Positions 7,321 to 55,651 of a stretch of DNA of 64,000 bases are shown piece by piece. The stretch is from IMG/VR virus record IMGVR_UViG_3300031992_000031, positions 1 to 64,000 of that record, one strand, 5' to 3'. The notes under the pieces were generated by a model, which was not told the DNA's origin, made no database searches, and saw only the letters and a program-made list of their open reading frames with translations. Every line of letters begins with the position of its first letter. The stretch's first letter is position 1. The position numbers were made by a program, and so were the translations under genes. This stretch comes from a virus (Duplodnaviria > Caudoviricetes).

Positions 7321-7372
7321 ATAAATATCGTACAGGGTCGCTGCTTTGCGCCGATGGTTGTACGATAACAGT

Positions 7373-7406
7373 AAGGGGTGGCTGGTATAGCACCCCTTAT
7401 TTTTTT
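7373..7406 (+). terminator. Intrinsic terminator
   Basis: AAGGGGTG...CACCCCTT then T run. Confidence 0.75.
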
Positions 7407-7495
7407 ATACTATGTAGAAAAAATAATAATAGAAGTTAATTCCTCTTAATACTCTATAATGGAATTAAATTATTATTTTAAATGGAGGTGATATA

Positions 7496-22989: not shown

Positions 22990-23059
22990 ATAAGTAGAAA
23001 ATGAGAGTAAGGAATCTCATTTCTAAATAAAATTTCATAACATAAGGAGGTTATGAGGT

Positions 23060-23444: not shown

Positions 23445-23532
23445 AGCCCCGCGGTCCGTGGCGGACAGACGGTCTCTAAAACCGTGGCCTCTGAAGCAAA
23501 CGAAGTAGGTTCGATTCCTACCGGGGCTGCCA
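23445..23532 (+). tRNA. Amber suppressor tRNA, anticodon CUA (probably Gln)
   Basis: AGCCCCG/CGGGGCT acceptor + G-CCA; ACGGT-CTCTAAA-ACCGT anticodon arm; GTAGG-TTCGATT-CCTAC T arm. Confidence 0.85.
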
Positions 23533-25347: not shown

Positions 25348-26676
25348 ATGGCAATTGGCACCGGAGAAAAAATATTATATTCTGATTTAGCATCAAAGTA
25401 TAATAGTTTTAATTCTTTTATTGCTACATATGGAGGCGAAATTACTACCTTAGTATTGCCCTAGACTGGCTAGCCCGCACACGCGTCTGATATTAATAAT
25501 TTGAATGATAAAATTGAAGAATTTCAATTTGATACTTTTTTAAGTACTCAACCAACTTGGTGGGTAAGTGGTTCAGTTACTATTGGTGAATTGATTGCGG
25601 CATCAAACATGGACAATATAAATACTACTATAAGTAATTTTAGTAGAGTGCAATGCCGTAATGCTGATGCTAGACATTCTTATTCTACTAATAGTAATGC
25701 CTGTAATCCTTAGACATGTAGTACAGAAGCATGTTCGCATCAATGCACTGGATAGTCTTGTAGTCGTCAATGTAGTATAACATGTAGTCATACATGTACT
25801 GCTCAGGCATGTAGTCGTTAGTGTTCTATTACATGCAGTAATAAATGTACGGCTTAGGCTTGCGGTCGGACTTGTAGTATTACCTGCAGTCACAAATGCA
25901 CGGCTTAGGCGTGTGGTAGAACTTGTAGTATAACATGTAGTAATAAATGTACCGCTCAAGCTTGTGGTAGAACCTGTAGTATTACTTGTAGTAATAAATG
26001 TACTGCTTAGGCTTGCAGTAGAACCTGTAGTAGAACATGTAGTAATACATGTGCAGCTTAGGGTGTATGCAATAAAAACTGCAGTTAGGCTTGTGGCCAT
26101 GTTACTAATGGATCATGGAAATGTAATTCTTATGGCTCATATCGTGGCTATCAAAATTGTCCTAATGGAGCAAGAACTAATACATGTGGTGCATAGGCTT
26201 GCTCTCATGGAAGCAACTCTGTTGCTTGTAACAATTCTTCTCATTCATAGAGTGGGCATACACATGGCACAAATAGTAATGCTTGCAACAATTCTTCTCA
26301 TTCATAGGGTGGACATACACATGGTACAAATAGTAATGCGTGTAATAATTCGTCTCATTCATAGGGCGGACATACACACGGAACTAATAGTAATGCTTGC
26401 AACAATTCTTCTCATTCATAGGGCGGGCATACCCACGGAACTAACAGTAATTCCTGTAATAATTCTTCCCATACTCAAGGTGGGCATACTCATGGGACAA
26501 ATAATAATGCTTGTAATAATTCGTCTCATACCTAGGGCGGGCATACTCATGGAACAAATAATAATGCTTGTACATATAGTTCTCATAATAATACTAACTG
26601 TGCTCATAGTACGCACGGATAGACCTGTAAACATTAGACCTATATTGATATAAGTAATGCACATACTAATCTTTGA
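25348..26676 (+). CDS. Cys/His-rich repeat protein (442 aa), putative substrate of YcaO/radical SAM enzymes; TAG=Gln
   Basis: GAGGAG RBS; single frame with TAG alternating with CAG/CAA in repeat copies. Confidence 0.85.
25771..26060 (+). repeat. 51-nt tandem coding repeat (CSITCSNKCTAQACGRT, about 5-6 copies)
   Basis: Repeated TGTAGTATAACATGTAGT...TGTACTGCT(C/T)AGGC units. Confidence 0.85.
26227..26570 (+). repeat. 57-nt tandem coding repeat (CNNSSHSQGGHTHGTNSNA, about 6 copies)
   Basis: Repeated TGTAA(C/T)AATTC.TCTCATTCATAGGG.GG.CATAC.CA.GG.AC units. Confidence 0.85.
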
Positions 26677-26688
26677 GGTAAATTGAAT

Positions 26689-28050
26689 ATGATAAATTTT
26701 AATAGTCAACGTTCCACCGCCGTTGTTTATAGTTGCGGTGTTTGTAATCTAAATTGTAGATATTGTACAATTGATAAAAATCCTGTATTAAAAGATATAG
26801 ATAATGAATTAGAAGAAAGTTTTAAGGGTGATTATTATTTTAATCGTATTAAAGAATACTTTCCACGTTATGATCAATTACATAGATTAGAAACTTGGGG
26901 AGGCGAACCTTTTTTACGTATGGACCGTGTTTATCCACTAGTACATAAATTAATTGAGCATTATCCTTATTTTAATGAAATGTTTTCTTCTACTAATTTT
27001 TCATATGATTCTTGGTTAGATCAATTTATGGGACTAATGAGAGTATTTGAACAATACCCATACAGAGAATTTAAATATGAATTACAGCTTTCAGTGGATG
27101 GCCCTCCTTATATTAATGATACTAATAGAGGTGCGGGCGTAACTGAAAGATGTATTAAAAATTTTGATAAGTTGATTAATATTATCAAAGAAGGAAAATT
27201 CCCTAAAAACGTAGTTTTAGATATGTATATAAAGGGAACATGGGATATTGAAGCAATTCATCGTTTAAATGATAAAGGAAAATTAATTGAATTTTTTCAA
27301 TTTTATGAACAGACATATTTATTAAAAGCAAGTGAATTAAATAAACCTAATATCATTGTCGGATGCGGAATTCCCAATGTAGCTATTCCATCACCAGTAA
27401 CAAAGCATGATGGAGAAGTATTTGCGGAATTAGTAAAAAAATGTAGAGAAATAGAAGAAGAAAATCTCACGCACCATTATTTTAAATTGTATGATCGTAT
27501 TACGCCATTTACTGGAAAATTCTGTAGTAATTATGGTGCTATGTGTGATGATTGCTTTGGCTGCGGATCGGGAGGCTGCATGGTAGGATTTTTACCTAAT
27601 AATATGGTATCAGCTTGTCATGAAGGATTTACTTTGCTTGTAGATAACTATAAAAAATTTGCAATGAAACGCTCTGATGAAAATCTTAGTGTTAATTTAA
27701 ATAAATTTTTTGAATTAAATACAACTCCGATGTGTTTGACTGATGAAGGGTACGTTGAACACGAAAGGAAAATGGATTTTATCAGCAATTCGTCTCCTGT
27801 TCAAGTCGCTAACACTGTTTTACTCATTATGACTCTAGCTATGAGCGGATTAGTGGATCAAAAGTATATTAATGAAGGTATGGCTTTATTCGCGGCAAAA
27901 ACAATATTAGTTAATTCATCATATTGTATTAAAGCTAATTATGCAATGACCGGTTCATTTATTCTAGAGCCTACTGATACTTATATTTTATTACTTAATG
28001 GAGCATTAGAATATATAAATGGAGGAGAAGATAATGAGTGTACTTGCTGA
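26689..28050 (+). CDS. Radical SAM enzyme with Cys-rich (SPASM/twitch-like) C-terminal region
   Basis: CNLNCRYC motif; WGGEP; LSVDGP; CGSGG...SACH. Confidence 0.9.
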   Translation: MINFNSQRSTAVVYSCGVCNLNCRYCTIDKNPVLKDIDNELEESFKGDYYFNRIKEYFPRYDQLHRLETWGGEPFLRMDRVYPLVHKLIEHYPYFNEMFSSTNFSYDSWLDQFMGLMRVFEQYPYREFKYELQLSVDGPPYINDTNRGAGVTERCIKNFDKLINIIKEGKFPKNVVLDMYIKGTWDIEAIHRLNDKGKLIEFFQFYEQTYLLKASELNKPNIIVGCGIPNVAIPSPVTKHDGEVFAELVKKCREIEEENLTHHYFKLYDRITPFTGKFCSNYGAMCDDCFGCGSGGCMVGFLPNNMVSACHEGFTLLVDNYKKFAMKRSDENLSVNLNKFFELNTTPMCLTDEGYVEHERKMDFISNSSPVQVANTVLLIMTLAMSGLVDQKYINEGMALFAAKTILVNSSYCIKANYAMTGSFILEPTDTYILLLNGALEYINGGEDNECTC

Positions 28051-29446
28051 AAATAAAATTCAATATCAAAAAGAGCAAGATCAGATACTAAAAACAATAT
28101 TGGATTATCGTTTTTTTAAACCGTGGAATAATATTGAGCAAATGGTTAATGACGCCGCGCTAAGAAACGATTCTAATTTAGAATTATTTATAAGCGGAAC
28201 CTGTAATCAACATTGTGATTATTGTTATTTATATAAGCATAAGGGCTTATATCCTCCTGAGTGTGATAACCCAGAACAGATTTTAAAAAATTTAAAAATA
28301 TTATATGACTATATTTTAGTTAATGATTATAATATTCCTGTTATTGATATATTTTCTGGCGAGATCTGGCATACTCAATTTGGTCTTGACATTTTACAAA
28401 TTACATTAGATTATATAAAAAAGGGAATGAAAGTAGAACAAATTTTAACTACCACTAATGGATATTTCCTTTCTAATGATATTAGTTTCCAAAAAATTCA
28501 ATCTTATATTAATCAATTTAATAATATAGGTTGCCCATTAGTATTTTCACTATCTATTGATGGTAAAATACTTGATAATGAATTTCGCGCTCGAAATAAT
28601 GGAATTGAATATGATGATAATTTTTATGATCATGTATTTAGTTTTTGTCGAGAAAATAATTTTCTATTTCATCCTATGGTATCTTCTAAAAACGTATTTA
28701 AATGGAAAGAAAATTATGAGTGGTGGAAAAAACAACTTAATTATTATAATTTTGATTTTAGTGCTATTATGACATTAGAAGTCCGCGATGCTGATTGGAC
28801 TGCAGAATCTATTAAAGCTTATTGTGAATTTAATAATTATCTAATTGATGACTTTATTAAAAATTATTGTCATAATAGTATTGAAACATTTGCTAAGGCA
28901 ATTACTGGAGTCCGTAAAACAAATGAAGTCCCCGATGTTGGAGGCTATCATCCTTGGACAATTGGGCCGGTTGACTCTTTTTTAGGATGTACCGTTTCAA
29001 ATCATTTAACTGTTCGAGTAGGAGATTTAGCAATTTGTCCATGTCATCGTACAGCATATAAAGAATATCTTTATGGATATTTTGTGGTTGAAAACGATCA
29101 AATCGTAGATATTAAATCTGAAAATCCATTAATGGCTATGAAAATTTTGATGGGGAATTTAAAATCAACAACTCCATTATGTACATATTGCATTTATAAT
29201 GATATATGCTTACATGGATGCTTAGGCAGTCAATTAGAAACTATGCATGATCCATTTTTCCCAATTGATAATGTCTGTAAATTATTTAGAGCGAAATATC
29301 ATAATTTGTTAAAATATTATAGACAATTAGGAGTAATTGATTATTTAAAACAAATTCCTATATCAGAAATAGATAATGAGCAAGCAAAGTTTATTGTAAA
29401 TATTGATAAATTAGACAGAGAGGTGTATCCAGACGATGTGGAATAA
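28034..29446 (+). CDS. Radical SAM/SPASM peptide maturase
   Basis: CNQHCDYC motif; SLSIDG; C...GDLAICPCHR...CTYC...CLHGCLG...C auxiliary cysteines. Confidence 0.9.
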   Translation: MSVLAENKIQYQKEQDQILKTILDYRFFKPWNNIEQMVNDAALRNDSNLELFISGTCNQHCDYCYLYKHKGLYPPECDNPEQILKNLKILYDYILVNDYNIPVIDIFSGEIWHTQFGLDILQITLDYIKKGMKVEQILTTTNGYFLSNDISFQKIQSYINQFNNIGCPLVFSLSIDGKILDNEFRARNNGIEYDDNFYDHVFSFCRENNFLFHPMVSSKNVFKWKENYEWWKKQLNYYNFDFSAIMTLEVRDADWTAESIKAYCEFNNYLIDDFIKNYCHNSIETFAKAITGVRKTNEVPDVGGYHPWTIGPVDSFLGCTVSNHLTVRVGDLAICPCHRTAYKEYLYGYFVVENDQIVDIKSENPLMAMKILMGNLKSTTPLCTYCIYNDICLHGCLGSQLETMHDPFFPIDNVCKLFRAKYHNLLKYYRQLGVIDYLKQIPISEIDNEQAKFIVNIDKLDREVYPDDVE

Positions 29447-29836: not shown

Positions 29837-30456
29837 CTTAGGTTCTTCTCTTAACCTATCGCGACAATAGAGAAGCGGCATGAAAGCGCCGTATAAGTAC
29901 TTCGGGCACCGATACTATGTCTTAGCTTGCCTAGGAAAGTAAAGTATCCGACGAGTTATAACGTCCGTAAAAGTGATATAACCGTATTAATGCCACGTAT
30001 GCGCATTCGCAGTACCGCTAAGGCGTTATAGAGCGGCGTAAGGCGACACGAGACATCGCTGGCGTAAGTAGGAATTGCGAGCCTATAAGCGCCGATTCCC
30101 GCATTTCTGGCGACCCATCGCAAATGGCTAGCAGGATTTGCGGGAATTTTTTTATTTGACTTTTTCTTTAATTTCATATATAATATCTATGAAAGGAGCG
30201 AGAAAATGAAATTTATAGTTGATCAGATGCCAGAGCATAAAGATGACTGTCCATTCGCAAGATGGGAATCATATCCGCCATGTGTGGAAAAAATTGGTGA
30301 TTGGTATTGTAGTTTTAGAAATCGTAAATTATGTGATTTAGAAGAAAATGAATGTAAATGGTTAAAAGAATATAAATCATAATAAGATTTTTATTTGACT
30401 TTTTATTAAATTTAGTATATAATATATGTAGATAAAGAGAAAAGGAGATTTTAATT

Positions 30457-30953: not shown

Positions 30954-31016
30954 TAGGCACACGCAGCAAACTTTTTTGAACAATTGTCTGTTAAACAATC
31001 AAGTTTATAGTGCCTA
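30954..31016 (+). ncRNA. CAGCAA stem element copy 1
   Basis: TAGGCAC-ACGCAGCAAA...GTGCCTA. Confidence 0.55.
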
Positions 31017-31468
31017 GTTTCCCAATAAGGCAGCATGGAGTAGCGCGAAACGAAGTGCTTGAGGGACGGGAACCACCATCTATGGGCCCGCAAGTAAAGA
31101 TAGATGGCGTATGAGAGAAGGAATATCTAGACTCCCCACTCGGCTAAACGGAATAGCAAAAGGTGACGGCTAGATCGCAAAGATTTTATCGGTTATTCAT
31201 AGTGCGTAAGATTATGGCAAACCGAGATAGCTATCGCTCGGAGAGACCGAGGATAAATAATCAAGCCCATTCTATGAAATGGTACAGCGCAAAGTTAGTA
31301 GATGACCGCTGGTATTGATTGGCGCTTTATAAAAGAGGATTAAATCGAAGGTTATTGCTCGAAAACCGCAGGGAGGAGTGGAGCTCCTCACCGGTCAGTA
31401 AACTGGAATAGATGGTTCGATTCCATATGCGGCGTACCGATATAAAGTTCGGAGTAGAGCAATTTTAT

Positions 31469-31543: not shown

Positions 31544-31668
31544 TAGACACATACAGCAAACCTTTTTCTAATGATGATTGAGGATCCGTGTGTTACAAGT
31601 TCGAACCTTGTCTAGCGCATCGCGCTAGTAGCTCAATTGGTAGAGCGACGTACTATTGAATGTGTCTA
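31544..31668 (+). ncRNA. Y RNA (YrlA)-like RNA: CAGCAA stem enclosing a circularly permuted tRNA domain
   Basis: TAGACACA...TGTGTCTA stem; T arm precedes closed acceptor hairpin CTAGCGC-ATC-GCGCTAG and D arm. Confidence 0.65.
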
Positions 31669-33863: not shown

Positions 33864-33982
33864 GGCCCGGTAGCTCAGTTGGCAGAGCATGCGGCTGGTC
33901 CGATACGTTCGGTCTTAGATAGGTTCAACTCCTATATCGGAAATTAACCGCAGTGTCCTAGGTTCGAGCCCTAGTCGGGCCG
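33864..33982 (+). tRNA. tRNA-Asn(GTT) interrupted by a 46-nt insert in the anticodon
   Basis: GGCCCGG/TCGGGCC-G; TGCGG-CTG[33898-33943]TTAA-CCGCA. Confidence 0.75.
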
Positions 33983-34077
33983 CTCGTGCTTTGATGACCA
34001 AATGTAGCTTGGCAGTAAATAAACATTAATGCAGATGTGGGGTTATGATGAAAGCCTTTACCTTAAAAGACTATTAT

Positions 34078-34426: not shown

Positions 34427-35257
34427 ATGATAGGTATTTATAAAATTACTAATAAATTAACTGGAAAAAGTTATATCGGACAAAGCGTACAAATTGAAAC
34501 TCGATGGTCGCAGCATAAATCAGTGAGTCGATCTTATGATACTTTAGATGGGAATGAATTACATAAGGATATATTAGAATTAGGTATTGATAATTTTTCA
34601 TTTGAGATTATAGAAGAGACAACTGCCGATAAATTAGATGAACGAGAAATATATTGGATTAAATATTATGATACTTTTTATAATGGTTATAATCATACAT
34701 TAGGCGGTAATGGTAATATAAGATTAAATTATAATAAAATACAAGAATTATGGAATCAAGGTTTAACTTCTAAAGAAATAGCTTCTTTGATAAATAGTTC
34801 TAGAGATACGGTTAATTATGCCTTAACTAATTTGGGCATTTCTACATTAGAAAAACGTATACGAAGTCAAGAATTAATTATGCAAGCATATGCCACGTAT
34901 AAAAGAAATGTATTAAAATTGGATATAGACACAAACGAAATAATTGAATCATTTGAGTCAGTTTCTGAAGCGGCAAAATCTTTAGGAGTTAATCGTGCTA
35001 CTTTTCGTGAAGGATTACAAAAACATAATAATAAATATAAGGGATATAAATGGATTATTAATATAGAAACTAAAAACACTCGTGATTTTTCAGCTAAAAA
35101 AGTAGCTAAATTAGATCCTGAAACAAAAGAACCTCTTGAATATTTTGAGTCTGCTAGTGCTGCTGCAAGAGCAATGAATCTTGCAGGAGCAACTCTAATT
35201 TGTAGAGCATGTAAAAACAATACCAAATCGAGAGGGTTCTATTGGAAATATATATAA
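34427..35257 (+). CDS. GIY-YIG homing endonuclease with NUMOD1/HTH repeats
   Basis: MIGIYKITN...SYIGQS; FESVSEAAK and FESASAAAR repeats. Confidence 0.9.
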   Translation: MIGIYKITNKLTGKSYIGQSVQIETRWSQHKSVSRSYDTLDGNELHKDILELGIDNFSFEIIEETTADKLDEREIYWIKYYDTFYNGYNHTLGGNGNIRLNYNKIQELWNQGLTSKEIASLINSSRDTVNYALTNLGISTLEKRIRSQELIMQAYATYKRNVLKLDIDTNEIIESFESVSEAAKSLGVNRATFREGLQKHNNKYKGYKWIINIETKNTRDFSAKKVAKLDPETKEPLEYFESASAAARAMNLAGATLICRACKNNTKSRGFYWKYI

Positions 35258-35964: not shown

Positions 35965-36074
35965 GCAACTAAATATTTGACATATAACAGAATTTCTGTT
36001 ATAATAAATATGTAAGAAGGACAGACCGACCTGCTTTAGCAGGAGGCACGAGGTGATGAGCTTCGGTTAACTTA

Positions 36075-36142
36075 TAGGCACATGCAGCAATCCTATGTTG
36101 TAAATATTACTTCTGTTTCAAGCTTTATTTAATCTGTGCCTA
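36075..36142 (+). ncRNA. CAGCAA stem element copy 4
   Basis: TAGGCACA-TGCAGCAA...TGTGCCTA. Confidence 0.55.
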
Positions 36143-36757
36143 GTAGTTTTGGTAGTATGCGCCGTTGTACCGCTCAGTGCCCGCACTGGTCGAGGTATTC
36201 TACCATATGAAACGGACTTCCCGCAGTAGGGTTATAATATACTGAGTGCTGGTCAGCGATGCGGAAAGCACTTAAAACACGGGCAGCTGACTTGCTGGTC
36301 ACAGAGGGTGTGTAGAAAGCAAGTAAAACACGGGTATGCCCAATGGGTCGTGTTTAATGAGCACCACCTTCGGATGTACACCGATCTCCAGTATGAGTAA
36401 AAACTACCGTTTGGGCTGCGTGAAACGCGCCGGGTCCACCGTGCGAATGCACAAGCACGCTCGTAAGTGCTGGGTTACGCTCCACCCGTGGGAAGTCCCC
36501 AAAGGAGGATGTACGAGAAATAGAGCTGCCGACGCCTCTACTGACGAGTATGCGTACCACGGGGCCACCGTATTCTTAAAACATTTCTTACGGTATATAA
36601 AGAAGAACTACTGACACATGGTTCGTGCCGCCAGGAAAACTTGACTTCTGCAGGAGTTGATAATAGCTAAGGGAAGTTATACGCTATTAAACCGCAAAGA
36701 GCACGCGGTATATAAAGAGAATGCTCTTGGCCGCAACTGCAAGGTGCGGCACTTTAT

Positions 36758-39809: not shown

Positions 39810-40138
39810 CTATACCAACGGACAAGGCTTTGGCGCATGACTACTTGGCGAATGTAGAAGATAATCATGAGGAGCAGGCGGAAGTACGAATAGAAGGCCG
39901 CGATGGATGCCACAAATGTGGGTAAGGGTAGGCGGTATGGTCTGAAATATTAGCCATACAGTAATGATTATCGTTATACTACTAAGCAAGTAGAACAGGG
40001 CGGTAGGACGCGAGTGGTTGGTATTTTAGCTAAGCCTGTTGTCGCGTTATAATACAGGTGGCACTCGTGAACGTGACGAGTAAAGTTATATGTCGCTCAT
40101 ATATGCCATGATTACGCACGGGTCGCGCCCGTATTTAT

Positions 40139-40295: not shown

Positions 40296-40620
40296 GGGGC
40301 TGAAATAGTATCGACAGGTATATGAAGTATTAAGGACACGGGTAGGCGGCGCACCTTACGCAGCAACCTAAAAGAAACGACGAATTTGATTTCGCACTAG
40401 CTGCTTAATTCACGCGGCTGCTTAAACGGCGAACCTAGCAATCGGTAATCGCCTGCGGCTCAGAGAAAGATTGCCGTTAGCACCAGTCTATTGCTCTCTG
40501 GCGAAACAAAGAGCATATTTGGTTTCAAGTTTGCTAGTTTCTCAAACTAGCTATCGTGTAAGTATTTCTTAATATGAATTATAGGCTGGACACGAGGGGC
40601 AGAACTCGTCAGCTCCACCA
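40296..40620 (+). ncRNA. ssrA: tmRNA
   Basis: GGGGCTG...TCGAC start, CAGCTCC-ACCA end with G3:U; internal tag ORF ...RNDEFDFALAA*. Confidence 0.9.
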
Positions 40621-41293: not shown

Positions 41294-42193
41294 ATGAAAG
41301 ATTTAACTGGACAACGTTTTGGGCATTTAACTGTATTACGAAAATACGGACACAAAGGTGGAAGAGTTTGTTGGGAATGTTTATGTGACTGTGGTAATTT
41401 ACATTATGTAATTACCTGTAATTTAACTACGGGTCATACGACTCGTTGTTCTAAATGTTCTAATTCTGTTGTTGATTTAACTGGGCAAGTATTTGGACAA
41501 CTAACAGTTATTGATCAAAATAAAACCTATCGTAAAGAAAATAATATTAAAGGTTATCATGCTTATTGGAATTGTCTATGTAGTTGTGGTAATACCACAA
41601 TTGCAAAAGGCACTGATTTGAGTAGTGGAAAAACAACGCAATGTAAACAATGTGCTGGTAATCAGTTAATTGATGAAACTGGAAATAGATATGGTTATTT
41701 AACTATATTAAATTATTTACGGACAGAAAATCATCAAATAATTTGGCTAGCACAATGTGATTGCGGAAATCAATGTGAAGTTAGAATTAATGATCTACGT
41801 CGTGGAAGAGCAAAATTATCTTGTGGATGTAAATCCATACGTTCGAAAGGTGAATTAGAAATTGAAGAATTACTAAAACAAAATAAAATTAATTATCAAG
41901 CACAATATGTATTTGATAATTTAGTTGGGCAACGTAATCGTAGATTACCATATGATTTTGCAATTTTAACACTAGATAATCAAGTTCAACGTTTAATTGA
42001 ATTTGATGGACAACAACATAATATTAGTGTAAATTATTTTGGTGGAGATAAAGTATTAAATCGTAGAAAAGAATTAGATAAAATAAAAAATAATTATGCT
42101 AAAGAACATCATATACCATTAATTCGTATTCCATATGATAAATTAAGTAAAATTACAATTGAAATGTTACTTGGCGATGAATATTTGATATAA
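41294..42193 (+). CDS. Putative homing endonuclease: CxCG repeats + PD-(D/E)XK domain
   Basis: Three DLTGQ.FG.LTV...W.C.C.CG repeats; YDF...LIEFDGQQH...LIRIPY. Confidence 0.8.
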   Translation: MKDLTGQRFGHLTVLRKYGHKGGRVCWECLCDCGNLHYVITCNLTTGHTTRCSKCSNSVVDLTGQVFGQLTVIDQNKTYRKENNIKGYHAYWNCLCSCGNTTIAKGTDLSSGKTTQCKQCAGNQLIDETGNRYGYLTILNYLRTENHQIIWLAQCDCGNQCEVRINDLRRGRAKLSCGCKSIRSKGELEIEELLKQNKINYQAQYVFDNLVGQRNRRLPYDFAILTLDNQVQRLIEFDGQQHNISVNYFGGDKVLNRRKELDKIKNNYAKEHHIPLIRIPYDKLSKITIEMLLGDEYLI

Positions 42194-44767: not shown

Positions 44768-44824
44768 TAGGCCATTACAGCAAACTTTGTAGAAATAGGA
44801 AATAATACAACAAACAATGGCCTA
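44768..44824 (+). ncRNA. CAGCAA stem element copy 5
   Basis: TAGGCCAT-TACAGCAAA...ATGGCCTA. Confidence 0.55.
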
Positions 44825-45188: not shown

Positions 45189-45300
45189 CTTTGCGGTGGT
45201 GGAATAGGTAGACATTTGGGGCATGACACACGTAAAGAGGTATGCGAGGGCGTGAAGTCTGGGTGTGTCCTGTGAGGTGCAAATCCTCACCCGCATTTAT

Positions 45301-45457
45301 AGTCCCTTAGCGTAATGGTAGCGCAACGGACTTGTATGGGTCGTCTAGGTTGGAAGGCCGGCTCGGTGTATTAGAATACACAGATGAGAAGAAGTGAGTT
45401 CGATCCTCACCCCATGCATTGACTCCGTATGTGTTGGTCCGATTCCAACAGGGACTG
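45301..45457 (+). tRNA. tRNA-Gln(TTG) interrupted by an 86-nt tRNA-like insert in the anticodon
   Basis: AGTCCCT/AGGGACT-G; ACGGA-CTT[45334-45419]TGAC-TCCGT. Confidence 0.75.
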
Positions 45458-45496
45458 CTTTGAAACAATCTTATTTATTAAAGCTTAGGAGGAATT

Positions 45497-47652: not shown

Positions 47653-48129
47653 ATGCCTATTCTGTATATTATGTGCGGTCCATCTGGATGCGGTAAAACA
47701 ACTTATTGTAGTGATAAGATGGAGTTGGCTCATTGTGTTTATGTTTCTCGCGATGTAGTTCGCTATGAAATTGTTAAAGAAGAAGAAGATTATTTTTCTC
47801 ATGAAAAAGAAGTTTTTCGTGAATTTGTACGGCGTATTGTAGAAGCTATGACCAATGGCTATGATTGTATTGCTGACGCAACTCATCTTAATCAGTTCTC
47901 ACGCCGTAAGCTTACACAAGCCATTGATATGTATACTACTGATTATAAAATTATTTATGTAGTATTTAATGTAGATGCCAATACTTGCGTTGCTCGTAAT
48001 GCTAATCGCACTGGGCGCGCCAATGTCCCAGAAAATGTTATTCGTAATATGTGCCGTGATTTTCGCGCGCCAACTAAGGATGAAGATGAACGGGTAATTG
48101 ATATTATTGAGGTAGGTGATGATAAATGA
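47653..48129 (+). CDS. P-loop kinase (AAA_33, polynucleotide kinase-like)
   Basis: GPSGCGKT; VSRD..R; DATHL...RR; RN..R. Confidence 0.85.
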   Translation: MPILYIMCGPSGCGKTTYCSDKMELAHCVYVSRDVVRYEIVKEEEDYFSHEKEVFREFVRRIVEAMTNGYDCIADATHLNQFSRRKLTQAIDMYTTDYKIIYVVFNVDANTCVARNANRTGRANVPENVIRNMCRDFRAPTKDEDERVIDIIEVGDDK

Positions 48130-48696
48130 GTGAGATTTTCTTTACAAGTGATACTCACTTTTGTTAGCCATAATAAAGAATTTCTTTATAAGCCGCGTGG
48201 CTTCTCTTCAATAGAAGAGATGAACGAAGCTATTGTAGAAAGATGGAATTGTGTGGTGCCAAAGGAATGTGGTGTAATTATTTATCATCTTGGCGATATG
48301 GCACTATCAGATACTGAAGCCGCAATTCCTTATATTAAGCGTCTAAATGGAGAAATCCGTTGGATTCGTGGAAATCATTGCTCAGATGCTCGTGTAGATC
48401 AAATTCTTGCGGCTTGCCCCAATGTTCAGCTTATTAGTCAAAATAAGGATAATGCTTGGGCATATATATTGAAAGACGGGAAGTGGCGTTTTTATCTTAG
48501 CCATTATCCTACTAAAGTTGCTAATTATGATGATACTCCAAAACATAAAACCTGGTGTCTTTGCGGGCATACGCATACTCAAGATAGATGGAAAGACCTT
48601 ACAGATAGTTGTTATCATGTAGAAATGGACGCTCATGATTGTTATCCAATTTCTCTCGAACAAATTAAAGCTGAAATTAAAGCATTAAATATTTGA
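48126..48696 (+). CDS. Calcineurin-like metallophosphoesterase with apparent +1 frameshift after DTHF
   Basis: MSEIFFTSDTHF in one frame; HLGD, GNH, SHYP, GHTH in the next frame. Confidence 0.7.
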
Positions 48697-48843
48697 CTTA
48701 AAATAAAATTTCTGGTATAATTATTATGAAAGATGAAACAGTATGGGATTATTCTGATTGCCAAATCGGACACCCATGTATAAATTGTATAAAAGAATGT
48801 ACCTTCCGACTTGACAAAGTTGTAGATGAAAAGGAGAAAAAAG

Positions 48844-50346
48844 ATGAACGAATTACTGAAAAATCTGAAAAAAGAATCTAATTACCGTTATACTGAAAAT
48901 GGCGCTCTTACTCATAAGACCACCTTTAATAAGGTGCTTGATATGTTTGGTATGGGTGGCGCGATGCGTAATCGCTCTGAGGATGACATTATTACAATGT
49001 TTAAGGGCGCTTATGAAGAAGAGCCCACGTTGGCTCTTCGCTGTTTGTTCTACCTGCGGGACGTGCGTGGAGGTCAAGGAGAACGGCGCTTCTTCCGTAT
49101 CATCCTCCATTGGATGGGCAACTATATGACTGATGAGGTTGAACACCTTATTCCTATGATTAGTGAATATGGCCGCTGGGATGATCTCTTTGAACTCTTC
49201 GGCACTAAGTGTGAGCCTGCGATGCTTGGATATATTCACTATACCATCTCTAAGAACGAAGACCATCTTATTTATAAATGGCTTCCTTCTATCAACGCCT
49301 CCTCTCGCACTACTAAATCTCGTGGTCGCAAGATTGCCACCGAATTTAATATAACTGAACGCGAGTATCGTAAGATGTTGACTGAAGGCCGCAAGGCTTG
49401 TAATCTGGTCGAATCTCTGATGAGTCAGAATCATTGGGATCAGATTGCCTTTGATAAGTTGCCTTCCCGCGCGGGCCTTCTGTATAAGAGAGCATTTATG
49501 CGCCGTGAGGAAACTAAGGCACGGTATGCCGATTTTATGAGCAATGAAAAGACCAAGGTCAATGCTTCGGTACTTAACCCTGTAGAAATTGCTCATCAGA
49601 TCTTCAACTATAACAGTTGGAATCGTCCGAGCGATACCGAGCGCAGCGCTTGGCAGAAATACTGGGACAACTTGAAGGACTATTATAATGGCCGTGAAGA
49701 ACCCGGTATTGCTGTCGTAGATGTTAGTGGCAGTATGTATGGTCAGCCTATTGAAGCCGCAGTCTCCATGGGCGCATATATTGCCGAACGTGGTAAAGGC
49801 CCTTTCCAGAATCATTTCATTACGTTCAGCAGCAACCCTGAACTTGTAGAGTTTAGTGGTGTGGACGTGTATGATAAGTTTATGCGCGCGAGATCGGCTG
49901 AATGGGGCGGAAGCACTAATATCGAAGCCGTTTTCAATTTGCTTCTTGATACTGCTCGTCGGAATCATGTATCAAAAGAAGATATGCCCAAGACTCTTTA
50001 TATCTTCAGTGATATGGAGTTCAATGGATGTATCACTAGTGGGCCCGTATCTTACGATCGTTGGGCTTCTTCTGGCCGTCCTCTTAGTGAGTGTCAGATC
50101 AATACGGTCATTGAAGAACAGGCTCGTAAATGGCGGCAGTATGGTTATCAGATTCCTCGTGTGGTATTCTGGAATCTTGATGCTCGTCATGATAATATCC
50201 CTGCTATCGGAGATGGATTCTCCTATGTAAGTGGATTCTCCATGAACATGGTAGAATGTATTCTCTCTGGCAAAGATGGATATGACCTTTGTCTAGAAAA
50301 ACTGAATAGTGAACGCTATCAGCCAATCTCTAGTGCCCATAAATAA
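48844..50346 (+). CDS. DUF2828 (TROVE/Ro-like + vWA) protein
   Basis: TENGA...RDVRGGQGER...YGRWDDL...KWLPS...VDVSGSM...FSDMEF...VFWNL...VSGFS. Confidence 0.8.
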   Translation: MNELLKNLKKESNYRYTENGALTHKTTFNKVLDMFGMGGAMRNRSEDDIITMFKGAYEEEPTLALRCLFYLRDVRGGQGERRFFRIILHWMGNYMTDEVEHLIPMISEYGRWDDLFELFGTKCEPAMLGYIHYTISKNEDHLIYKWLPSINASSRTTKSRGRKIATEFNITEREYRKMLTEGRKACNLVESLMSQNHWDQIAFDKLPSRAGLLYKRAFMRREETKARYADFMSNEKTKVNASVLNPVEIAHQIFNYNSWNRPSDTERSAWQKYWDNLKDYYNGREEPGIAVVDVSGSMYGQPIEAAVSMGAYIAERGKGPFQNHFITFSSNPELVEFSGVDVYDKFMRARSAEWGGSTNIEAVFNLLLDTARRNHVSKEDMPKTLYIFSDMEFNGCITSGPVSYDRWASSGRPLSECQINTVIEEQARKWRQYGYQIPRVVFWNLDARHDNIPAIGDGFSYVSGFSMNMVECILSGKDGYDLCLEKLNSERYQPISSAHK

Positions 50347-54427: not shown

Positions 54428-55651
54428 ATGTTGAATGCTAATTCTGAGCGCGAACTCGCCTATGTTGTATTGATTGACGGTATTGAGCCTATTCCTGGCT
54501 ATGATCGTGTAGAGCACGCAATTGTTGGTGGTTGGCGTGTAATCGTTCAAAAAGGCCAGTTTAAGGTAGGCGACCCCGCTATTTACTTTGAAATTGATTC
54601 TCGTGTACCTTCTAAGGAGTGCTTTGCTTTTCTTGAAAAGCGGCATTATAAAGTTAAGACTTTGAAGATGTGTAAGACTTTGTCGCAGGGCTTGCTAATG
54701 CACGCTTCTGACTTTGGTTGGACTATTGGTAATGTTGAACCTGAAACTCCATATATTATGGATGATGAACGCATACCTCATTATGTAAATGATGAATCTC
54801 GCTTCCTCACCAAGAAACTTGGCGTAACCTATGTCGATGATGAAGATAATTCTCGTAAGGCTCCTTCAGTAGATAAATACAAGAAGATGGAGATGCGACA
54901 TCGCAAGCTGTTTAAGAATCCTGTAATTCATTGGTTTATGCGTTATAAGTTTGGTCGCAAAGTAATGTTTTTCTTCTTTGGTAAGAAGAAAGATAAGAAA
55001 AATGGTTGGCCTTCTTGGGTCCAAAAGACAGACGAAGAAAGAGTACAGAATATGCCTTGGATTCTTAATAGCACCGATAAGTGGATTGCTACTGAGAAAA
55101 TTGACGGCACTTCTACTACTTTCACCATGAAGCGTGGCAAATTCGGACGTAAGTCTTTCTATGTCTGCTCTCGTAATGTATGCTTCGGTGAAGAAGATAA
55201 ACCTTGCTACTACGATACGAATGTATATTGGGAAATGGCTAAGAAATACGATATTTACAACGTGCTTTCTGCTATGCTTGATGCTCATCCTCATGATGAA
55301 TGGATTACTCTTCAGGGTGAAACCTATGGTGCAGGTGTACAGCGGCGTGAATATTCTCTTGATGGTCATGATTTTGCGGCTTTTAACTTGATTTTCTCTT
55401 CTCGTGGACGTGTTGGAACTGTAGAAATGATTACTATTTTGAGTGAATATAATGTACCATGCGTACCTGTAGTAAAAGCAAATATGACCTTTACAGATAG
55501 ATTTGCAACTGTAGAAGATATGCTTCTCTGGGCTGAAGGCAATTCTCAAGTAGATGGACTTCCGCGTGAAGGAATTGTATTCCGTACTCTCGACGGACAG
55601 AAATCTTTCAAAGCAGTAAGTAATAGTTTCCTACTTAAATATCATGGGTGA
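54428..55651 (+). CDS. RNA ligase (Rnl2/DRB0094-like)
   Basis: N-terminal OB-like module; KTDEER, TEKIDG, QGE, EGIV, FKAVS motifs. Confidence 0.85.
   Translation: MLNANSERELAYVVLIDGIEPIPGYDRVEHAIVGGWRVIVQKGQFKVGDPAIYFEIDSRVPSKECFAFLEKRHYKVKTLKMCKTLSQGLLMHASDFGWTIGNVEPETPYIMDDERIPHYVNDESRFLTKKLGVTYVDDEDNSRKAPSVDKYKKMEMRHRKLFKNPVIHWFMRYKFGRKVMFFFFGKKKDKKNGWPSWVQKTDEERVQNMPWILNSTDKWIATEKIDGTSTTFTMKRGKFGRKSFYVCSRNVCFGEEDKPCYYDTNVYWEMAKKYDIYNVLSAMLDAHPHDEWITLQGETYGAGVQRREYSLDGHDFAAFNLIFSSRGRVGTVEMITILSEYNVPCVPVVKANMTFTDRFATVEDMLLWAEGNSQVDGLPREGIVFRTLDGQKSFKAVSNSFLLKYHG

Follow-up and report, generated by a model that had tools for sequence, protein, structure and literature searches.

Among described systems, the element reported here comes closest to the tRNA introns termed "enigmatic" in Lak megaphages (Devoto et al. 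2019, PMC6784885, Fig. 4, Table S6). These interrupt the anticodon loops of phage tRNA genes, are short and contain no ribozyme, are present in some relatives and absent from others, and are identical across samples; a possible tRNA was remarked on in one of them (PMC6784885). The paper does not propose how these introns are removed, and the string "splic" is absent from its main text; nor does it give a rule for the junctions or make a connection to a ligase or to homing. Inspection by eye of all four introns in its Table S6 reveals a T arm near the end of each, followed by an acceptor strand and one or two further bases (PMC6784885). Anticodon loops of bacterial tRNAs are also occupied by group I introns, with or without a homing endonuclease (PMC3984707). 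Archaeal tRNA introns can carry homing nucleases as well, and the archaeal and eukaryotic introns are cut and ligated enzymatically (EndA/TSEN with RtcB or Trl1) through cyclic phosphate and 5'-OH ends. To our knowledge, tRNA introns described so far depend for their removal on either a ribozyme (bacteria and organelles) or the EndA endonuclease (archaea and eukaryotes). Outside of introns, tRNA-like signals are read by RNase P and RNase Z in the MALAT1 mascRNA, mitochondrial tRNA punctuation and two-piece tmRNA, while phage tRNA clusters contain free-standing homing endonucleases such as SegB of T4, and collaborative homing is a further parallel.

Here, an 86-nt tRNA-shaped insert was investigated in the anticodon of a tRNA-Gln(UUG) gene that lies in the window, the first 64 kb (64,000 nucleotides) of a 133-kb phage record estimated by CheckV to be 75% complete. 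Like the Lak introns, this insert is short, lies in the anticodon loop of a phage tRNA, is present or absent among relatives, has its 3' junction at the 3' end of its tRNA-like domain, and belongs to a phage in which TAG encodes Gln; the Lak introns, however, begin with an extra hairpin and an A-rich linker and lie 3' of the anticodon, whereas this insert is flush with mimic position +1 and lies inside the anticodon (34/35). With group I introns it shares a split anticodon loop, a predicted removal at the RNA level and, in relatives, a nuclease in the intron loop that would spread the intron, but its family lacks a ribozyme core, is far shorter and tRNA-shaped, and is predicted to rely on protein or RNP enzymes and a ligase. 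The original prediction had judged the insert too short for a group I intron, and indeed its 86 nt contain no P3-P9 core and match no intron model in Rfam; the U that precedes a group I 5' site is present (U34), but the insert ends in T or A instead of the terminal G, and most relatives end in CCA. Archaeal and eukaryotic introns share the enzymatic cut-and-ligate splicing predicted here, yet a bulge-helix-bulge was found in 0/62 inserts of the family, no RtcB was found in carriers, and the predicted ends are 3'-OH and 5'-phosphate. As in mascRNA, tRNA punctuation and two-piece tmRNA, a tRNA-shaped element would direct end-processing nucleases onto a longer RNA; in those systems the flanks are released and not rejoined, whereas here both flanks must be ligated. 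The parallel with SegB-type homing lies in an HNH cassette that splits this gene in relatives, and an ORF-less insert at this site would be protected from cutting and might spread through a nuclease encoded elsewhere; unlike in that system, no homologue of the cassette HNH proteins was found in this genome.

The original prediction had suggested what would be a form of splicing unfamiliar from bacteria or phages; a tRNA within a Lak phage tRNA intron has been published, albeit with no mechanism proposed. No description of RNase P/Z-driven splicing or of a junction rule was found in the literature searched, which consisted largely of papers available without subscription. The insert is real and conserved and belongs to a widespread family; it varies on a type of intron that has hardly been described, and the mechanism it is likely to use would be new.

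Anatomy of the interrupted tRNA-Gln gene

The interrupted gene and its parts are listed below by window position.

45301-45458, plus strand: tRNA-Gln(UUG) outer gene, ending at G73
45301-45333, plus strand: 5' exon (acceptor strand, D arm, anticodon stem, C32-U33-U34), identical to the insert-less allele L308
45334-45419, plus strand: 86-nt tRNA-shaped insert, putative intron, between anticodon positions 34 and 35 (mimic G+1 to A73 plus one T)
45334-45340, plus strand: inner acceptor stem, 5' strand, with a predicted RNase P cut just before 45334
45343-45358, plus strand: inner D-like arm (sequence, Rfam alignment)
45366-45381, plus strand: 6-bp hairpin with a 4-nt loop at the place of the anticodon arm, with no valid anticodon (Rfam alignment, predicted fold)
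45394-45410, plus strand: inner T arm (scanner, Rfam alignment, predicted fold)
45411-45419, plus strand: inner acceptor 3' strand, discriminator A (45418) and one extra T (45419)
45420-45458, plus strand: 3' exon, U35 to discriminator G73, without an encoded CCA

When positions 45334-45419 or, equally, 45333-45418 are cut out, ARAGORN recognizes a 72-nt tRNA-Gln(ttg) with the loop CTTTGAC, while other cut registers yield a 6- or 8-nt loop, or a tRNA-Pro when shifted by one base. The boundaries are independently fixed by the allele in contig L308, which has identical exons and lacks exactly these 86 bases. The anatomy and boundaries of the insert are thereby confirmed as the original prediction had read them, including the one-base ambiguity of the cut, the 7-bp inner acceptor, the D and T arms and the absent anticodon loop; its span of 45301-45457 for the gene was right at the start and one base short of G73 at the end. 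The inner acceptor (45334-45340/45411-45417) comprises seven pairs, one of them G-U, and the place of the anticodon arm is taken by an irregular stem that ends in the 6-bp hairpin. Taken alone, the insert is scored by Rfam as a weak tRNA (23.3 bits against a gathering score of 29, E 0.011), the only match for E up to 5, with no match to the intron families, and no ORF lies inside it. In the minimum-energy fold of the precursor (z -2.3), the outer cloverleaf is intact and both the acceptor stem and the T stem of the inner element form, while the inner D arm is in part paired otherwise. For the uncut gene ARAGORN calls a tRNA-Thr(TGT), which is ruled out by the empty allele being Gln, and excision of DNA by a recombinase is opposed by the lack of terminal repeats, there being one redundant base only.

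The phage and its tRNA cluster

TAG is a Gln codon in this phage record: reading through it gives an ORF coverage of 0.90 of the record, against 0.52 under code 11, and a tRNA with the anticodon CUA is found at window 23445-23532. Over the whole record, TAG codons are denser in structural and late-looking genes. A long cluster of tRNAs and ncRNAs extends over ~23-45.5 kb of the window, and the record yielded neither tRNA-Gln(UUG) nor tRNA-Asn(GUU) in intact form. Among the tRNAs found in the genome, Asn is represented solely by a second split gene, overlooked in the original prediction, whose insert consists of an acceptor stem and T arm only.

33864-33983, plus strand: tRNA-Asn(GUU), split gene, with a 46-nt mimic at 33898-33943, also at 34/35

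Several other features of this region were recorded. A phage-encoded tmRNA and the Rfam cow-rumen-3 and cow-rumen-4 RNAs lie at window 40296-40620, 36345-36440 and 22994-23056, GC-richer long non-coding stretches near 29850-30140, 31020-31450, 36020-36740 and 39820-40130, and free-standing GIY-YIG and HNH-like nuclease genes within the tRNA cluster at 34427-35257 and 41294-42193. Window 25348-29446 encodes a Cys/Ser/Thr-rich repeat protein with many TAG codons; the two genes after it have radical-SAM-like cysteine motifs (by eye). An ACAGCAA-like motif is common to three stems (~30955-31019, 31545-31668 and 44770-44824), the second of which contains a permuted tRNA-like domain (T arm, closed acceptor, D arm) that we take to resemble bacterial Y RNAs, and a DUF2828/DUF7788/VWA gene at 48826-50346, near these stems, is possibly Ro60-like. 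Immediately upstream of the tRNA-Gln gene, window 45212-45296 holds a free-standing tRNA-Leu-like RNA without an anticodon, relatives of which keep the ends (acceptor, D arm and T arm) around a wholly different middle, with a total length of ~98-163 nt; this RNA is a possible tRNA decoy.

Alleles of the tRNA-Gln gene

A search with the 5' exon recovered the gene in 12 viral contigs, five of them without an insert, four with one of three unrelated tRNA-shaped inserts (86, 83 and 43 nt) and three split by an HNH gene. The four insert-bearing contigs divide into one with the same 86-nt insert, two (L310 among them) with the same 43-nt minihelix ending in ACCA, and one with an 83-nt mimic at 35/36. 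In the HNH-split alleles (L309, L313 and L314), an HNH gene together with an intact replacement tRNA-Gln splits the gene, and the old 3' half resumes in the anticodon, a layout seen in full for L309 and L314. This tRNA-Gln site is a hotspot for both nucleases and inserts. A search of related phages for inserts at the same site had been proposed in the original prediction, which allowed for a non-conserved recombination scar; the comparisons do not bear out such a scar.

L309, 877-1450: HNH gene and replacement tRNA-Gln in the anticodon of the same tRNA-Gln gene (also L130, L313, L314)
L239, 2504-3320: HNH-bearing tRNA-Lys insert
L362, minus strand, ORF 325-963: HNH-bearing tRNA-Lys insert

The 86-nt insert itself is identical in L003, L017 and L039 and has one change in L035. 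Three metagenome contigs, the real ones among 119 matches of a loose pattern scan, carry it identical or one base different, one of them belonging to nearly the same phage, and the isolated-phage collection gave no match. In two distant relatives, gene and insert form an island of 164-196 bp at 96-98% identity, next to a DUF488-like gene, the next shared gene, that is 68% identical; between G000 and G001, same-anticodon tRNAs have a median identity of 69%. This insert has either moved recently or been tightly constrained, as strong selection could give the same island pattern. The insert-less alleles and the brief, highly identical stretch around the site are as expected of a homing intron; an internal endonuclease ORF is lacking in this insert and found in L239 and L362, tRNA-Lys genes with tRNA-shaped inserts of 735 and 776 nt in which an HNH gene lies between the mimic D and T arms. 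Their HNH proteins share 56% identity and match the cassette nuclease at 37-42% identity over 59 residues, and no homologues of them were found in the 75%-complete genome of this phage. Elsewhere, L249 appears to have an intact tRNA-Ile(GAU) nested inside another tRNA gene (near 7350-7490), and in many of L187-L305 intact CCA-ending tRNAs are directly followed by the orphan 3' half of another tRNA; such orphan halves are probably scars of nuclease cassettes.

A family of tRNA-shaped inserts in phage anticodons

Pattern scans of IMG/VR and related loci, parsed with a purpose-written scanner, yielded 62 flush inserts (counted as distinct sequences and not as independent events), which measure 43-135 nt, occur in 12 tRNA types and lie after position 34 (24 inserts), 35 (27) or 36 (11). 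All 62 start at mimic position +1, which is G in 43 and C in 18, and they end at N73-CCA in 50, at N73 in 4, at N74 in 7 (this insert included) and otherwise in 1, with the share of CCA ends biased because the patterns required a T arm and one of them also ACCA. In every one of the 50 inserts ending in N73-CCA, the exon bases on both sides sum to exactly a 7-nt anticodon loop, a sum not imposed by the scanner and reached on average by 17.7 inserts, and by at most 31, over 100,000 permutations. The acceptor and T stems, which the scanner required to pair, do so by many different base pairs across the family, and the T loop, G53-C61 and 12-bp spacing are kept throughout (partly scanner-required); a canonical anticodon arm is kept in only 3/62, and the inner middles are unrelated in sequence and length. 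These elements are not due to chance, since tRNA regions shuffled in 40-nt blocks contained none over 836 kb, whereas 209 kb of unshuffled sequence contained 13. A scan of GTDB genomes returned only two, both on MAG contigs, which makes the family look predominantly viral. Inserts of the Lak type, in which a hairpin precedes the tRNA mimic on its 5' side and which lie 3' of the anticodon, were seen in L323, L332 and L402; their 5' cut cannot be at the mimic's +1.

The quality of the interrupted genes was assessed from pass rates at rising ARAGORN thresholds: joined exons pass in 62/62 cases, and at a strict threshold 56/62 joined hosts pass, compared with 118/213 intact tRNAs; the host genes thus show no decay. 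Of 15 interrupted genes in 11 genomes, whose tRNA regions were read, 14 are alone in carrying their anticodon, and they complete otherwise near-complete tRNA sets, G015 having no intact Gln-TTG or Lys-TTT and G021 and G023 no intact Ile-TAT; this single-copy status is suggestive only, as phage tRNAs can be dispensable. U34 tRNAs are commoner among the hosts (51/62) than among intact tRNAs (93/213).

RNA ligases and other candidate enzymes

The phage encodes the following candidate enzymes, and two phosphoesterases in all besides the kinase-like protein.

54428-55651, plus strand: ATP-dependent RNA ligase, Rnl5-like (PF09414 + PF21189, phrog_968), candidate exon joiner
47653-48696, plus strand: polynucleotide-kinase-like gene (47653) and phosphoesterase gene (48130), with a putative role in RNA end healing

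The nearest solved relative of the 54428 ligase is Naegleria Rnl5. Ligases of the Rnl5 type join nicks in duplexes and act poorly on single strands, loop breaks being sealed by Rnl1 and Rnl4 (PMC4408790); the role of Rnl5 ligases has been called uncharted (PMC5397189). An ATP-dependent RNA ligase was found in 25/26 insert-bearing records and in 11/20 other tRNA-bearing phage records (Fisher p 0.001, uncorrected for kinship), where control genomes were scanned for inserts only in fetched stretches and carrier G005 is an ARAGORN call by eye. The 54428 family accounts for 18 of the 26 carriers and Rnl1 for seven more, the ligase-less record being 72% complete. No RtcB was found in G000 or the 26 carrier records, a host RtcB being possible. 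A search for an RNase Z-like fold found none in this genome and only weak matches in 4/27 records, and a search restricted to type B RNase P RNA found none in this record, so that the nucleases would be those of the host.

A proposed splicing route and its alternatives

We rate splicing at the RNA level as likely. Our best reading, on balance a probable one, is that host RNase P and a tRNA 3' nuclease would excise the intron and that its flanks would then be ligated, which is the route suggested in the original prediction and is favored by the +1 starts, the N73/CCA ends, the single-copy hosts and the co-occurring ligases. The precursor is modeled as a tRNA whose anticodon loop bears a second tRNA-like domain, and by mimicking the top half of a tRNA the intron would be removed by ordinary tRNA-maturation enzymes. 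Bacterial RNase P cuts acceptor-plus-T-arm hairpins correctly at +1, a position that it locates by a distance of 12 bp to the T loop (PMC11143913). The insert has the features of such a substrate, with a 7-bp acceptor stacked on a 5-bp T stem, a T loop and a +1 site, and host RNase P is likely to read the inner T arm and acceptor stem and to cut before G+1, which would leave the 3'-OH of the 5' exon at U34. A tRNA 3'-end nuclease would cut just past the inner discriminator, leaving the 5'-phosphate of the 3' exon at U35.

RNase Z itself is a tentative candidate for this second cut, at somewhat less than an even chance. The enzyme cuts after N73 in CCA-less precursors and after CCA in CCA-bearing ones, and that of B. 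subtilis is strongly slowed by CCA in Mg2+ (PMC7479834). A junction after N73 or CCA is present in 54/62 inserts (50 CCA, 4 N73) and not in this one, which ends at N74. This end, one base beyond the canonical RNase Z site, counts against excision by RNase P and RNase Z, as does the CCA at the end of most members, which slows the B. subtilis enzyme. The identity of the 3' nuclease is uncertain, given the N74 end and the two-base tails of 10/12 CCA-less inserts. A general -1/N73 cut rule (with a U-1:A73 pair) would rescue this insert and was rejected, as it gives the wrong anticodon in L176, L185 and L313.

The products of RNase P and RNase Z have 3'-OH and 5'-phosphate termini, which an ATP-dependent ligase joins without healing, in line with the ligase census. 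End healing would be unnecessary, and the kinase and phosphoesterase included in the original prediction become superfluous if these two nucleases make the cuts; the corresponding genes are probably not needed for this intron. Pairing in the stems of the outer tRNA would hold the exons together for sealing into tRNA-Gln(UUG) by an ATP-dependent RNA ligase, which is probably encoded by the phage. For the 54428 protein as this ligase we see an even chance: it is an RNA ligase, as the original prediction required, and it belongs to the Rnl5 family, whose preference for duplex nicks over single-stranded breaks weighs against the proposed route. At the DNA level, the intron would spread by homing, with some members carrying an HNH gene inside the mimic, and this ORF-less insert probably persists because it interrupts a site that is attacked by HNH nucleases. 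As to its origin, an HNH cassette may have left a tRNA nested in a tRNA, and once ligation restored the outer gene, selection would keep the part that the nucleases read.

An alternative that we consider unlikely retains a true intron and assigns one or both cuts to another nuclease, either a phage enzyme or one of RNase III/Mini-III type leaving a 2-nt 3' overhang, in which case kinase/phosphatase healing may precede ligation. The two unpaired bases past the acceptor stem in 10/12 CCA-less inserts have the geometry of such an overhang, and the kinase and two phosphoesterases of the phage would have a task. A nuclease of double-stranded RNA, however, has no need of the T loop, G53-C61 and 12-bp spacing that the family keeps, nor of the CCA that ends 50 members, and neither the searches for an RNase Z-like fold nor those for RtcB in carriers point to a phage enzyme of this kind.

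It is improbable that the insert is an unspliced DNA remnant, left where a homing cassette brought a replacement tRNA, lost its nuclease gene and let the nested tRNA decay in a dead host gene. Just such a cassette of HNH gene and tRNA-Gln splits the same gene in L309, L313 and L314, and orphan 3' tRNA halves behind intact tRNAs are common, but the cassette destroys the outer anticodon stem and leaves five bases after N73, whereas the flush class has a pristine outer gene. A scar of this type is marked by a working inner tRNA and a decayed outer gene, neither of which is found here; the inner tRNA of the flush class has lost its anticodon, the outer loop is restored to the base in 50/50, and 14/15 cases have no replacement tRNA. 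The cassette route may explain the origin of the family and not its present state.

Still less probable is a decoy, in which the inner RNA would be the selected product, directed against anticodon nucleases or tRNA sensors, with rejoining of the exons absent or incidental. U34 tRNAs are typical targets of anticodon nucleases and are enriched among the hosts, 59/62 inner mimics lack an anticodon, and an anticodon-less tRNA-like RNA stands free just upstream in this phage; yet a decoy leaves unexplained the exact restoration of the 7-nt loop, the pristine exons and the missing intact copies, and the unrelated inner middles speak against it. A self-splicing ribozyme (group I or group II) or an archaeal-type bulge-helix-bulge intron is very improbable, for although sites 34/35 to 36/37 overlap known tRNA intron sites, the inserts measure 43-135 nt, have no conserved core and no Rfam intron match, and lack the central 4-bp helix in all 62 cases, this insert having 2/4 central pairs.

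Implications for phage tRNA biology

Returning to the proposed route, we rate it slightly better than an even bet that these inserts form a separate intron class, widespread in large phages, excised wholly by the 5' and 3' tRNA-maturation nucleases of the host, sealed by an ATP-dependent phage ligase without healing and spread by an HNH nuclease encoded in the anticodon region of the mimic. If true, this would constitute a further splicing route built from housekeeping enzymes, neither of the ribozyme nor of the EndA type, and would bring protein-assisted tRNA splicing into the bacterial domain. It would also supply a candidate natural substrate for Rnl5 ligases and make some phage tRNAs, mostly U34 species, dependent on a phage ligase. 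Standard annotation misses or misnames such genes, as with the tRNA-Thr that ARAGORN reports for tRNA-Gln here. The elements of 43-86 nt are small enough for direct work in vitro, and the proposed route offers a testable mechanism for the unexplained introns of Lak phages.
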